This document shows, one piece after another, positions 13,224-44,313 of a DNA stretch of 64,000 nucleotides (the stretch's first letter is position 1; each line of letters opens with the position of its first letter). This stretch comes from Candidatus Aenigmatarchaeota archaeon (lineage in GTDB: Archaea; Aenigmatarchaeota; Aenigmatarchaeia; PWEA01; JACQIF01). The stretch lies in assembly GCA_016432325.1 (NCBI GenBank), contig CP066684.1, forward strand, positions 32,001-96,000, read 5' to 3'. The notes under the pieces were generated by a model that saw only the letters and a program-made list of their open reading frames with translations, was not told the DNA's origin and did no database searches. Both the position numbers and the translations under genes were made by a program.

Positions 13224-14435
13224 TTATACCAGCGCCGTCGCCAGCTTCAGGAGAGAAGGCTTCTTCATGAGCACTTTCGCAAGAACGCTCAACCTTTTGC
13301 CGTGGCAAAGCTCCATTATGGTCTCCCCGTCCAGGCTGTCCGCGAGCATGTCCATGTCCTCGTCGGCTATCTTCTCCATCACTTCGCGCACTTTTTCCAC
13401 ATTGCGGAGCATGTTCCCGCGCTCTGTCCACCAGCGTTCGTTGTACGTTGCGAGCGCCTTCGCCGAGAAGTCGTTCTTCTGTTTGGCCTCTGCGAGCACG
13501 TGCCCCAGTATGTAGCCGGCTCTCTGGGCTTCGCCTATCCCGCCGCCGTGTATCGGGTTCACCTGGTGAGCCGCGTCTCCGACAGCCGCGAAGCCGTTCA
13601 GAACCATGTTCTTCAGGAAGCCTCCGACAGGGATGCCTCCGCATACGGTGTTGACGATAGAACCTTTCCTTATACCGGGCTGCGTCGCAATCCACGCGTC
13701 CAGATATTGTTTGGCCGTCTTCTCGTAGCCCATGGAACCGATGCCTATACCGACGTTCGCGCGGTCGTCGCCCTTGGGGAATATCCAGACGTAGCCGCGC
13801 GGCGAAATCTTCGAGCCGAAGTATATTATGAGCTTGCGCGGATCCTCCATCTCGATGTCGACCATCTCGTACTGGTAGCCCGAGTCAGTCGTCTTCAGCA
13901 TCAGCGTCGAGCGCAAGCCGGCCATGCGCGTGATGCGTCCTTCGACGCCGTCCGCCCCGACAACGGCGTTGCACTTTATCTCGAAATCATCGCTCTCAAA
14001 GTTGCCTTTGACGCCTGTTATGTACGTTTCTCCGTTCTTCTGTTCCTTGACGAGTTGCGTAATCTCGGTTTTGGCTTGCACGTACGCGCCTTTGCGCGCC
14101 GCCTGCTGCGCGAGCCACGCGTCATACATCTTGCGTTCGAGAATATAACCGACTGTCTCTCCAAAGTCTATGACGACCTTCTTGCCGTTTGGAGAATAGA
14201 CTATCGCGCCGTCTATCTCCTGCGCGTAGACCTGGCGAGGAAGCTTGTCGACCATTCCCAGCGCTTGGACCGCGTAGATGCTCAGGCCTTCGCCGCATCG
14301 GACAGGGATTCCTATTTCCTGACGTTTTTCTAGAAGTGCGGTCTTGAGTCCGAGCTCTGCGCACTTGCGCGCTGTGGCCGAACCGCCTGGTCCTGCGCCC
14401 ACGACAACAACATCATATTCAGAACCCAGAACCAT
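13224..14435 (-). CDS. digeranylgeranylglycerophospholipid reductase (GGR)
   Basis: GAGPGG FAD motif, PVRCGEG, GYVWIFPKG, GDAA..GGGI. Confidence 0.92.
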   Translation of the reverse strand: MVLGSEYDVVVVGAGPGGSATARKCAELGLKTALLEKRQEIGIPVRCGEGLSIYAVQALGMVDKLPRQVYAQEIDGAIVYSPNGKKVVIDFGETVGYILERKMYDAWLAQQAARKGAYVQAKTEITQLVKEQKNGETYITGVKGNFESDDFEIKCNAVVGADGVEGRITRMAGLRSTLMLKTTDSGYQYEMVDIEMEDPRKLIIYFGSKISPRGYVWIFPKGDDRANVGIGIGSMGYEKTAKQYLDAWIATQPGIRKGSIVNTVCGGIPVGGFLKNMVLNGFAAVGDAAHQVNPIHGGGIGEAQRAGYILGHVLAEAKQKNDFSAKALATYNERWWTERGNMLRNVEKVREVMEKIADEDMDMLADSLDGETIMELCHGKRLSVLAKVLMKKPSLLKLATALV

Positions 14436-14444
14436 ATGTTCACC

Positions 14445-14672
14445 TTAATGAGCGTGTTGCTTTGCCTTCGGGGGCTCGACTTTGATGCATCCTATCGGGC
14501 AGACCTTCTCGCAGAGCGTGCAGTGCGTGCACTTCTCCTCTATGAAATGTATTCCCCCGCGTTCCGTGAGGTCCAGCGCGAGAGGCGGGCACACGCCCAC
14601 GCAAGCGCCGCATCTGAGGCACTTGTCGTCGTCTATCGTCCAGCCCTGTTCCTGTCTGATGCCTTGATCCAT
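14445..14672 (-). CDS. 2x[4Fe-4S] ferredoxin
   Basis: Two CxxCxxCxxxCP motifs; AGGTGA SD before ATG 14672; upstream of GGR. Confidence 0.9.
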   Translation of the reverse strand: MDQGIRQEQGWTIDDDKCLRCGACVGVCPPLALDLTERGGIHFIEEKCTHCTLCEKVCPIGCIKVEPPKAKQHAH

Positions 14673-14677
14673 GAACT

Positions 14678-14726
14678 TCACCTTTTCCTCATGGACTTTT
14701 GAAACAGCAGTTTCATTTGGTCCATG
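14678..14726 (-). promoter_or_regulatory. structured leader plus 15-codon uORF (MDQMKLLFQKSMRKR) before ferredoxin
   Basis: CATGGAC-caaa-TGAAAC-tgct-GTTTCA-aaa-GTCCATG; near-identical copy at 40161-40197. Confidence 0.7.
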
Positions 14727-14814
14727 CGTTACGTGAGACGCGCGTCTTAAATAGGTTGTGTCGGCGAAGTTTTGATTTGTGTGTTTCAGGAGTAAACGAG
14801 ATGGCACCATTTTC

Positions 14815-27913: not shown

Positions 27914-28016
27914 TTAAAGGATGGAAGTAACGTATTTAAATGTCGCACGTGACCAATAGCATACCAAATCTTCAATAGGTTGGATGTAACCGGAAGATTA
28001 CGTCTTGGTGGGTCGC

Positions 28017-28340
28017 ATGTCGTCTAAAGCGCGGATTAAGCTGACGGGAAGGGATGTGCAGAAGCTCGACGAGCTCTGCAAGCAGATAAAGGACATCGCC
28101 GAGAAGTTTGGAGTTTCTGTCAAAGGCCCTGTTCCCATGCCAACAAAGCGCTTGCGCATTCCCGTTCTTAAAACTCCCAACGGTTCCGGTACGGGCCATG
28201 GCAATGCTACGTGGGACCACTGGGAGATGCGCATCCACAAGCGTCTGCTCGACGTCGGTGCGGACCAGCGCACGCTGCGATACATAATGAAAATAGAAAT
28301 CCCGGAAGACGTGAACATCCAGATACAGCTGATTGAGTAG
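28017..28340 (+). CDS. rps10: 30S ribosomal protein uS10
   Basis: KARIKL, GPVPMPTK, TWDHWEMRIHKRL; GGTG SD before ATG 28017. Confidence 0.96.
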   Translation: MSSKARIKLTGRDVQKLDELCKQIKDIAEKFGVSVKGPVPMPTKRLRIPVLKTPNGSGTGHGNATWDHWEMRIHKRLLDVGADQRTLRYIMKIEIPEDVNIQIQLIE

Positions 28341-28969: not shown

Positions 28970-29053
28970 TTCAATATAACCGAGCGCTGGTACGAAACCG
29001 CAGTTTCGGCTTCCAGCGCCACGTATTTATCCTTTTGCGTGCGTACAGGAGAC

Positions 29054-34801: not shown

Positions 34802-35037
34802 TGAGCATCATACGCGCGAAGGAGATGAGGTCGATGGAAGAGCGGGAACTTCGCAAGCGCGTCGACGAGTTGAGACTCGAGCTTACGAAATCGCAGGCTC
34901 AGGTGGCCATAGGCGGCGCGCCGCCGAATCCGGGCAGGATAGGGGAGATAAAGAGAACAATCGCACGCGCGTTGACGATAAGGAGGGAGCGCGCATCAAA
35001 GTCACAATCGCAGAAACCCGCAAAACGAGGTGCATGA
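34801..35037 (+). CDS. rpl29: 50S ribosomal protein uL29
   Basis: MSIIRAKEMR..ELRLEL..NPGRIGEIKRTIARALT. Confidence 0.95.
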   Translation: MSIIRAKEMRSMEERELRKRVDELRLELTKSQAQVAIGGAPPNPGRIGEIKRTIARALTIRRERASKSQSQKPAKRGA

Positions 35038-35081
35038 AACATGGTTTCATACCTCCTCGCTTCGAAAAAATCCAGAGGTGA
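35034..35081 (+). promoter_or_regulatory. two-hairpin leader plus 15-codon uORF (MKHGFIPPRFEKIQR) before aIF1
   Basis: ATGAAAC-atg-GTTTCAT then ACCTC..GAGGT stem pairing the SD; ATGA overlap with rpl29 stop. Confidence 0.6.
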
Positions 35082-35087
35082 CAAGAA

Positions 35088-42792: not shown

Positions 42793-44313
42793 ATGGCAGC
42801 ATATACAACCGCCCAGAACGCCAATGAGGGACCGGTAAACGTCCCACCGCAAACCGTTCAGCCGTCAGCGCAGTCTCCTGTTACACTTTCTCTCCGCGAC
42901 GTATACGTCAAGTTCATCAACTGGCTGCCCGGACTGGACAAGCCGAGGGAAAAGTTGCTGTTCAAGACGAAGCTCATATGGACCGCGGCCATGCTGCTGT
43001 CGTTCTACGTGATGAGCGAAATCCGCGTCTGGGGTTCCGGCGACCCCGCGGGCAACCTTGCCCTCGCAGAGACGGTCCTCGGTTCGCAGATAGGAACTCT
43101 CATGACACTCGGCATCGGGCCCATTGTTACGGCGTCCATAATACTACAGTTGATATCGGGCAGCGGCATGATACGCATAGACACGTCGACCCATCAGGGC
43201 CGCGCCGTTTACCAGGGAACGCAGAAGGTTCTGGCCATCGGCTTCGCGTTCTTCGAGGCGATCGCCTTCGTGATGTTCGGGGCTGTCCCCCCTGCCTCTG
43301 CGGGTCTCGGGCTCGCCGCGGCCGTGATGTTCCAGATAGCTCTCGGAGGACTCATAGTGATACTGATGGACGAGGTCGTCTCCAAGTGGGGCATCGGTTC
43401 TGGCATATCCCTCTTCATCGCCGCAGGAGTCGGCCGCGAGATATTCATACGCGCCTTCAACTTCGTCGGCCAGGGAGGGGTCATAAGGCCCGTCGGAAAC
43501 ATTCCCGTTGCCGTCAGCAGCTTCATGTCAGGGGCTCCGGGCAACGCCTTCATAGCGCTAGTGCCGATAGCCATCACGATTGTCGTGTTCTTCATAGTCG
43601 TCTACGCCCAAGCAATGAAAGTGGAGATACCGATGACGATAAACGCCCTGTTCGGCAAGCGCGTGGCGCCGGGATGGCGCGGCCTCAGTCACAGGTATCC
43701 GCTCAAGCTTCTCTACACTTCGAACATCCCCGTCATACTGATGTCCGCGCTTCTCGCCAACTTCCAGCTGTGGGCGACGCTTCTACAGTCCCGCGGATCG
43801 CCGATTCTCGGTACGGTCGGAGCCAGCGGGATCGCTGAAACAGGACTCATCTCGTGGATATCGCCGCCGACCCAAGTGCCTTTCTCCGAGATAATGATAG
43901 CCGCTCTGGATCCGTCGGTTTCGGTCAACCCCGACGCGTGGAGGTGGATTACGTACGCCATCTTCCTCACGGCCGGCTCCATAATATTCGCGTTCTTCTG
44001 GGTCAACACGGCAGGTCTCGATTCCAAGACGATGGCGCAGAAGATGCATAACGCGGGCTTCGGCGTGCCGGGCTTCCGCAGCGACGTTCGCGTCGTGGAA
44101 CGCGTGCTGGACCGCTACATACCGGCGCTGACCATACTCTCGGGCGCTTTCATAGGGCTCCTCGCGTCATTCGCGGACTTCGCCGGCGTGCTGGGCAGCG
44201 GCACCGGAATCCTGCTCGCAGTCATGATAATATACAACCTCTACGAACAGATAGCCCAGCAGCACGTGGAAGAGATGCATCCGATAATGCGCAAGTTCAT
44301 GGGTGGTACGTGA
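42793..44313 (+). CDS. secY: protein translocase subunit SecY
   Basis: LGIGPIVTASIILQL, DEVVSKWGIGSGISLFI, YTSNIPVIL, SGTGILLAV. Confidence 0.97.
   Translation: MAAYTTAQNANEGPVNVPPQTVQPSAQSPVTLSLRDVYVKFINWLPGLDKPREKLLFKTKLIWTAAMLLSFYVMSEIRVWGSGDPAGNLALAETVLGSQIGTLMTLGIGPIVTASIILQLISGSGMIRIDTSTHQGRAVYQGTQKVLAIGFAFFEAIAFVMFGAVPPASAGLGLAAAVMFQIALGGLIVILMDEVVSKWGIGSGISLFIAAGVGREIFIRAFNFVGQGGVIRPVGNIPVAVSSFMSGAPGNAFIALVPIAITIVVFFIVVYAQAMKVEIPMTINALFGKRVAPGWRGLSHRYPLKLLYTSNIPVILMSALLANFQLWATLLQSRGSPILGTVGASGIAETGLISWISPPTQVPFSEIMIAALDPSVSVNPDAWRWITYAIFLTAGSIIFAFFWVNTAGLDSKTMAQKMHNAGFGVPGFRSDVRVVERVLDRYIPALTILSGAFIGLLASFADFAGVLGSGTGILLAVMIIYNLYEQIAQQHVEEMHPIMRKFMGGT

Follow-up and report, generated by a model that had tools for sequence, protein, structure and literature searches.

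Two genes in the window (the whole 64,000-nt stretch of archaeal DNA analysed here), one encoding a ferredoxin and the other ribosomal protein L19e, are preceded by closely similar hairpins and 15-codon ORFs, which raises the question of whether their leaders hold a conserved cis-regulatory RNA or a mobile mini-element that brings its own ribosome-binding site. The original prediction had put forward both readings, with apparent covariation cited for the first. Direct reading of the sequence gave 37 nt for each hairpin, CATGGACcaaaTGAAACtgctGTTTCAaaaGTCCATG on the minus strand before the ferredoxin gene (14726–14690) and TATGAACcaaaTGAAACcaccGTTTCAaaaGTTCATG on the plus strand before rpl19e (40161–40197). 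As had been described, the two differ only at base 1, at three of four loop positions and in one pair (G-C to A-T), and they have in common an inner stem (TGAAAC/GTTTCA), a 7-bp outer stem and, between them, an A-rich internal loop in which CAAA faces AAA. The distance to the gene is also equal, with each hairpin followed by 6 nt, AGGTGAAG, 3 nt and ATG. Allowing up to three mismatches, this leader pattern occurred at two sites in the window and at none in 100 shuffles, and a search of the whole 874,869-bp genome returned the same two sites. The ferredoxin hairpin folds with −14.8 kcal/mol (z = −6.0 versus shuffled sequence) and the rpl19e hairpin with −9.8 kcal/mol (z = −5.2), and the minimum-energy fold of both leaders leaves the working Shine-Dalgarno (SD) sequence and the working start free. 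The internal loop is not an L7Ae-binding kink-turn, which has a 3-nt bulge and tandem G.A/A.G pairs: CAAA faces AAA, and no GA stands next to the stem on the 3' strand.

In the ferredoxin leader (minus strand), a TATA-like box (TATTTAAG, 14746–14753) ends 20 nt ahead of the first ATG, a distance that equals the genome-wide spacing of leaderless starts (19–22 nt). The original prediction had placed this ATG about 25 nt after the box and probably at the transcription start. The upstream ATG belongs to an upstream copy of the ferredoxin start (ATGGACCAA, 14717–14725), a direct repeat of ATGGATCAA at 14672–14664. The hairpin (14690–14726) consists of a 7-bp outer stem of start sequence, a 4/3 internal loop and the 6-bp core (14715–14700) with loop TGCT. 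Its last 7 nt, GTCCATG (14690–14696), are an inverted copy of the start and can pair with either start copy, with a duplex energy of −11.8 kcal/mol for the upstream copy and −11.8 kcal/mol for the real start. The leader reads as copy, inverted copy and copy (ATGGACCAA ... GTCCATG ... ATGGATCAA), the order of a small inverted triplication. The insert-borne SD AGGTGAAG (14676–14683) holds the TGA stop (14680–14678) of a mini-ORF of 15 codons (MDQMKLLFQKSMRKR, 14678–14725 including the stop), at a stop-to-start distance of +5 nt from the working ATG (14672–14670) of the 4Fe-4S dicluster ferredoxin gene (14445–14672; Pfam Fer4_7, 4e-15). A geranylgeranyl reductase gene (13224–14435; GGR_cat, 1e-23) lies directly downstream.

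The rpl19e leader (plus strand) has the same architecture in a different setting. The TAG stop of an upstream 61-aa zinc-ribbon ORF, followed by GGTG (40150–40156), forms the ancestral stop-SD context of rpl19e, and within this context stands the upstream copy of the start (ATGAACC, 40162–40168), repeated directly at 40215–40221. The hairpin core, TGAAAC-CACC-GTTTCA (40172–40187), is followed by the inverted start copy GTTCATG (40191–40197), giving the order ATGAACC ... GTTCATG ... ATGAACC, which is general across the family described below. Here too the insert-borne AGGTGAAG (40204–40211) contains the TGA (40207–40209) of a 15-codon mini-ORF (MNQMKPPFQKFMQCR, 40162–40209), again +5 nt from the start of the L19e gene (40215–40685; Pfam Ribosomal_L19e, 4e-21; L19e_C, 6e-26). 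The predicted 15-codon frame with its stop inside the SD is thus open in both leaders. The zinc-ribbon ORF itself (39967–40152, plus strand; CPICG...CRTCG), located between rpl32e and rpl19e, is without a Pfam match and keeps its position in 5 of 5 relatives examined.

The two leaders proved to be not a private pair but members of a family of about 30. The core TGAAAC-N3-8-GTTTCA is present in 36 copies in the 0.87-Mb genome, compared to 0 in the reversed control and at most 4 for palindromes of shuffled hexamers, and the looser form GAAAC-N3-9-GTTTC in 78 copies compared to 4 in the control. A covariance-model search of the genome and its relatives had been proposed as a check on the prediction; our model (R1), built from 18 copies, found approximately 31 distinct loci in this genome at E ≤ 0.01, where the E-values are rough. 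The ferredoxin hairpin was the top match in the genome (43.1 bits), and the rpl19e hairpin scored 40.7 bits. With 35 of 46 positions identical, the two inserts are typical of the family, and we rejected the idea that they are an exceptionally close, recently copied pair; copies across the family are 76–84% alike, and at this likeness no recent burst of copying is visible. A third member in the window precedes the aIF1/SUI1 gene (35027–35055, plus strand) and consists of a decoy SD (GAGGTG), the core ATGAAAC-ATG-GTTTCAT and an anti-SD (TACCTC). It is a weak R1 match (E = 0.03), and the frame opened by its ATG (35034) runs for 15 codons up to a TGA lying within the real SD, GAGGTGA (35075–35081).

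Gene-facing copies are usually built alike, beginning with a duplicate of the start or ribosome-binding site and continuing with the conserved hairpin, an inverted start copy, a GGTGA-type SD and the working start. Outside the core, the 5' arm is a copy of the host gene's own start or ribosome-binding site and the 3' arm is the complement of that copy, as in ATGGGAGCCGC at C1:395592, ATGATAAC(C/G)AAAATC at C1:122282, ATGGCACAAGAAG at C1:481594 and GAGGGAC(C/A)AGTAAATG at C1:802653. Pairing of the outer stem is specific to each gene, with a copy's own flanks giving −10.0 kcal/mol compared to −6.9 for permuted flanks (p = 7e-9, a value that overstates independence because the copies are related by descent, as holds for the other p-values across copies). 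In the alignment, all seven outer pairs (7/7) vary on both sides, the inner stem is invariant and the outer-pair covariation score is 0.171 compared to 0.085 after shuffling (higher in 500 of 500 shuffles). A direct repeat between 5' arm and working start scored at least 9 at 24 of 156 oriented sites compared to 1% of controls, and a scan of all genes for start duplication, which relies on a crude custom gene caller, gave 18 genes with a score of at least 10, variant cores included, compared to 1 in the control. The flanking repeat begins at or before the ATG and is 7–22 nt long. A typical insert measures approximately 46 nt, and the GGTGA(A/T)G tail is common to more than 30 unrelated sites and to several genera. 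We rejected the SD variant GGTGAAG as a marker of the element since it also precedes genes with no hairpin.

The genome is recognisably archaeal from the L19e, L32e, L7Ae, histone, geranylgeranyl reductase and splicing endonuclease that it encodes. Host genes of the inserts include those for L19e, L1, S12, L7Ae, RNase PH, Rpp14, ThrRS, SMC, HerA, histone, FKBP, nitroreductase and ferredoxin; these are assorted housekeeping functions and form no regulon. The TGAAAC core is also found at gene 3' ends, inside operons and, in relatives, in or beside tRNA genes. Two members at gene 3' ends lie at C1:633371-633405 and C1:102859-102892, and in the former the 5' arm takes in the end of the upstream gene, with its final codons and TAA stop. 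Hairpins with a GAAAC...GTTTC core are also seen in the window at 28986–29017 (plus strand) and 1598–1615; one has outer arms GCTGG/CCAGC and stands approximately 47 nt before a predicted start, and the other reads TGAAAC-GGCGCGCC-GTTTCA. Inserts with other cores (TGAAAT/ATTTCA, AAAAAC/GTTTTT and others) duplicate starts with the layout and GGTGAAG tail of the TGAAAC family, at C1:31799-31833 (approximately 170–200 nt before the window start), 334263, 413149, 370519, 590878 and 119186/124429, and the copy at C1:31299-31778 has a perfect 18-nt repeat.

Comparison with relatives pointed to both gain and loss of inserts. The nearest relative is 71–83% identical at the protein level and all relatives compared are at genus level or beyond, so an 'empty site' here is a between-species comparison. 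At rpl19e, the hairpin is lacking in five relatives (G001, of the same genus, G004, G013, G017 and G019), in which the stop of the 61-aa ORF is directly followed by GGTG/GTG and the L19e ATG; the ancestral context TAG-GGTGTA-cgt-ATGAACC is retained upstream of the hairpin in this genome. The ferredoxin-reductase gene pair has a plain leader in four relatives. An insert before L39e is present in this genome, G017 and G019, where the G017 and G019 copies would represent one shared event, and absent from the same-genus genomes G001, G004, G013 and G015. G001 and G009 have an S10 insert and G007 has one with a variant core, but this genome and 13 others have none, and the hairpin at aIF1 is absent from the G001 site. 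A different short hairpin (GGATGTAAC...GATTACRTC) precedes the SD of S10 (28017–28316) in the window, at approximately 27950–28016 on the plus strand, and recurs in G001 (locus L100), where the TGAAAC insert stands between this hairpin and the ATG. Searching the whole class with the model gave 22 matches in this genome, 4 in G001, 1–6 in family f4, none in nine genomes of family f5 (0/9) and single matches in 3 of approximately 126 genomes outside the order; judged by these matches, the hairpin family is confined to a few families of one order. A metagenome search with L19e for closer relatives returned no matches. The empty sites, presence and absence within genera, restricted range and unrelated hosts are together consistent with repeated gain at gene starts rather than with an old conserved regulatory motif.

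A stem selected as RNA should gather G-U pairs on the mRNA strand and fold better in the sense orientation. Across copies there was no such bias: 12 copies folded better as the sense strand and 19 as the antisense strand (p = 0.44), and the sense strands had 17 G-U pairs compared to 28 in the antisense strands. We therefore rejected selection on sense-strand RNA and trace the 'covariation' to sequence copied from the target. Given this symmetry between strands, the stems resemble palindromes of DNA, perfect at first and eroded without strand preference thereafter. The single 'compensatory' pair that separates the ferredoxin and rpl19e hairpins, previously taken as evidence for RNA structure, falls exactly where the genes' own starts differ (ATGGAC versus ATGAAC), which again argues that the stem was copied from the target. 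The only polarity we found was in the loop, where TNCG lies on the gene-ward strand in 7 copies and on the other strand in 1, and this may just mirror the fixed orientation of the cassette. Of the two original readings, the mobile mini-element with its own ribosome-binding site thus fits the approximately 30 copies, empty sites, gain and loss within genera, single lineage and functionally unrelated hosts. The conserved cis-regulatory RNA found no support at these two loci, as neither hairpin is found at the orthologous rpl19e and ferredoxin sites of the relatives examined and the mRNA strand carries no G-U excess.

We conclude that the leaders are probably start-duplicating hairpin micro-inserts of approximately 45–75 nt, members of a lineage-restricted family that settles at gene starts and carries its own ribosome-binding site. 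The unit would comprise a start or ribosome-binding-site copy, the hairpin TGAAAC-loop-GTTTCA, an inverted start copy, a spacer with a GGTGA-type SD and the working start. At the ferredoxin locus, a leaderless gene with its ATG at the transcription start would have gained approximately 44 nt behind codon three and a second ATGGAYCAA along with them, and at rpl19e the point of insertion would lie after ATGAACC, downstream of the ancestral stop-GGTG context. The old start would now head the 15-codon ORF, which continues across the hairpin to a stop inside the new SD, 5 nt short of the new start. With the stop so placed, the gene should stay translatable by direct SD-led initiation and probably also by termination-reinitiation. 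The outer stem would be a by-product of making the insert, namely the inverted target copy, and not an RNA structure kept by selection.

How such inserts arise is a matter on which we hold a tentative view, at slightly less than even confidence: a portable hairpin and SD cassette of approximately 46 nt may be installed without a transposase, possibly via replication or repair, with the target copied once inverted and once direct. The cassette would form a class of insertions of its own and be self-neutralising, building its own long stem from host sequence and turning a leaderless gene into an SD-led one while the coupled mini-ORF keeps translation going, and its modules in tRNA genes could be a source of archaeal introns. 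We know of no mechanism that gives direct and inverted target copies around a portable hairpin. No Y1/RAYT transposase (PF01797) was matched in the 874,869-bp single contig, in a search that scored in 6 of 14 control genomes. The whole genome also contains no multi-copy insertion sequences (IS) or long repeats, with no 18-mer present at least four times except short motifs, and no CRISPR array was found in it as a source of the core.

Promoter spacing and mini-ORF stops bear on how the host genes stay expressed. Long ORFs across the genome most often begin 19–22 nt after a TATA-like box, a sharp peak in the spacing (96 of 271 cases) that indicates leaderless mRNAs as the norm at promoter-proximal genes. 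The ferredoxin copy and nine others have decoy ATGs 20–23 nt after TATA-like boxes, which fits this peak, and the upstream ATGs of these ten copies look like original leaderless starts. Among 18 copies with a repeat-defined upstream ATG, 15 have a mini-ORF stop −8 to +10 nt from the working start, compared to 24% of control upstream ATGs. Termination-reinitiation works at approximately −8 to +10 nt in Haloferax volcanii and E. coli, with coupling about halved at 13–14 nt and absent by 22 nt (PMC10666635). The ferredoxin and rpl19e copies, at +5 nt, are within this distance, translation of their mini-ORFs being a prediction. In one subfamily the two ATGs are separated by 54, 57 and 87 nt, all multiples of 3 despite unequal loop lengths, and the stop is a TAA or TAG abutting the working start codon (recurrent context GTAAATG). 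One copy (C1:757410) has no stop and reads through in frame, which would add 17 codons to the protein, and another (C1:395592) stops early at the TGA of the core. The working start of inserted genes has its own well-placed SD.

Several of these regularities would also suit the main rival explanation, a host cis-regulatory cassette in which the 3' arm serves as an anti-start or anti-SD that pairs either with the upstream decoy (ON, working start free) or with the working start (OFF), the balance being set by mini-ORF translation or loss of the 5' arm and the core serving for protein binding or nucleation. Pairing of the 3' arm with the region of the working start is stronger than that of permuted arms (−9.75 compared to −6.99 kcal/mol, p = 1e-4), which makes such a switch physically feasible, and the stops in reinitiation range, the ATG-to-ATG distances that remain multiples of 3, the sense-strand TNCG loops and the L39e insertion common to two species (G017 and G019) are all in its favour. 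We nonetheless consider it unlikely, as orthologous sites lack conserved hairpins, the host genes share no function, the mRNA strand has no G-U bias and the same core recurs at the 3' ends of genes and within or adjacent to tRNA genes; in addition, the minimum-energy fold keeps the upstream hairpin with the working SD and start free, so that no switch is predicted. The regular mini-ORF stops and the pairing of the inverted copy with the working start may nevertheless reflect a host-beneficial regulatory role, original or later acquired. As barely credible, we rejected the idea that a dimeric transcription factor binds the palindrome as its DNA operator a short way past the promoter: the half-sites TGAAAC/GTTTCA are invariant and the site lies 10–25 nt after the predicted transcription start, but half-site spacing varies from 3 to 9 nt, the gene-specific outer arms covary, copies are also seen within tRNA genes, operons and the ends of genes, and there is no regulon among the hosts.

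Two further explanations concern the origin and fate of the insert. Each leader could have been made in place, with no mobile unit and with the core as a shared mutational hot spot, by template switching during replication or by a small inverted triplication where the sequence is prone to form hairpins. Such events produce the order copy, inverted copy and copy (PMC13334657), and a single template switch can yield stems together with apparent compensatory changes (PMC8794818), and no transposase was found in the genome. The conserved 16-nt core, the approximately 46-nt length and the GGTGA(A/T)G tail at more than 30 unrelated sites in several genera nevertheless need a copied template, and the two sides of the internal loops regularly fail to match (CAAA faces AAA, for example), as those of a newly made fold-back copy would not, which makes this origin very improbable. 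Scarcely any weight falls on the possibility that the insert is an intron-like segment removed from the mRNA by the archaeal splicing endonuclease, restoring the ancestral leader. The enzyme is encoded in the genome (PF01974, 3e-28), relatives have tRNA genes with the same core within or alongside them and 10 of the 12 tRNAs recognised by ARAGORN in the genome have introns. However, a scan for bulge-helix-bulge motifs (two 3-nt bulges on opposite strands with a 4-bp helix between, at both junctions) gave one match in the ferredoxin leader and none in rpl19e, compared to 0.7 and 0.5 in shuffles; we rejected such an intron at both leaders, since the scan was at chance level. The lone ferredoxin match would not excise the insert in frame, and the predicted fold has a symmetric 4/3 internal loop and not staggered bulges.

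Start-duplicating micro-inserts resemble several known systems in part. Integrative elements, such as those that integrate in tRNA genes, regenerate the displaced end of the target gene but are kilobase-sized, with an integrase and an attachment site. The inserts likewise replace the displaced gene end, with a unit of approximately 46 nt and no enzyme gene. Rickettsia palindromic elements (RPEs) are also short palindromic repeats in a reduced genome that land in or at essential genes which stay functional (PMC2635572), and the C1:757410 copy resembles them in reading through in frame (+17 codons). RPEs, however, lie in frame within coding regions and are translated in the protein, with no target copy, inverted copy or ribosome-binding site, whereas the inserts described here sit at the gene start, where the old frame is ended and translation would be restarted; the window copies stop after 15 codons, and 1 of 18 copies reads through.

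MITEs, REP/REPIN sequences and Correia elements are, similarly, non-autonomous, hairpin-forming, multi-copy DNAs near gene ends that can change expression signals (PMC3184786; PMC11602168). Unlike these, the inserts have no terminal inverted repeats, with a hairpin at one end only, their flanking repeat ranges from 7 to 22 nt instead of having a fixed length, and the outer stem derives from the target and not from the element; the genome has no RAYT (Y1/IS200-like) gene, multi-copy IS or parent IS that we could find. Small inverted triplications and template switches share the order of segment, inverted segment and segment as well as apparently compensatory stems made in one step, but use local sequence only, with approximately 150 bp in yeast and human (PMC13334657; PMC8794818; PMC5453318). 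Here, 7–22-nt repeats surround a portable conserved hairpin and SD tail at more than 30 sites, and a spacer hairpin is outside that definition. In most copies an upstream stop lies −4 to +7 nt from the next start with an SD between, as in termination-reinitiation coupling and leader mini-ORFs (PMC6728339; PMC10666635), although the upstream ORF consists of the gene's own former start, severed from the rest and read on into the insert, and is not a gene or a conserved leader peptide; its translation is a prediction.

An Rfam match, or the existence of just these two copies with neither conserved in relatives, had been named beforehand as a finding that would refute the prediction. Neither outcome was observed, given the many copies in the genome; there were 0 Rfam matches at gathering score in the window, and an E-value search of both loci returned only the unrelated tfoR, at E = 0.71 and away from the hairpins. 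We also found no description in the literature of Aenigmarchaeota hairpin insertions or of palindromic elements with start-codon duplication. The inserts matched no described element that we could find in Rfam or the literature. If this reading is correct, very small DNA can spread in a streamlined genome without killing essential genes, as the insert restores the broken start codon and ribosome-binding site and leaves the old start as a coupled mini-ORF, converting leaderless genes to Shine-Dalgarno-led ones in one step. Apparent 'covariation' would then arise without selection on RNA structure, which is a warning for structure-based RNA discovery, and the inserts would be a possible origin of hairpins with exon-complementary arms, the raw material of archaeal introns. 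Wrong start-codon picks at dozens of genes in the annotation of DPANN-type archaea would also be explained.

Other features of the genome were observed along the way. ARAGORN reported 12 tRNA genes in the whole 0.87-Mb genome, 10 of them intron-bearing, which suggests that most tRNA genes are too interrupted for detection. In the hairpin copies at C1:246784, 641183 and 830128, the arms read TGGTGGACC and match the reverse complement of a tRNA 3' end with CCA. In the aIF1/SUI1 gene (35079–35414, plus strand), no ATG, GTG or TTG occurs between the in-frame TGA (in the SD GAGGTGA) and the conserved CPNCGLPK zinc knuckle. This genome and 14 of 14 relatives inspected (loci L123-L143) instead have a conserved ATA, ATC or ATT codon that follows a strong SD by approximately 6–9 nt and precedes the first Cys by three codons, which suggests a non-canonical AUH start codon for the very factor that guards start-codon fidelity. 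Such a start would parallel bacterial infC, which begins with AUU, and eIF1, which is autoregulated through context. An AUH start of aIF1 is not mentioned in PMC6237735.

A second repeated leader module, TTTACCGCTCAGA-N7-8-GAGGGACCAGTAAATG, precedes approximately 15 gene starts, mostly outside the window (C1:488080-488176, 178630-178690, 596626, 853957, 421945 and others). At C1:488161 it forms a tandem repeat with a 44-nt unit, and a diverged copy of its GAGGGACC-GTAAA part lies in the window at 42826–42841. At C1:178672 the module is chained with a TGAAAC hairpin, giving two serial mini-ORFs that each end in TAA-ATG.
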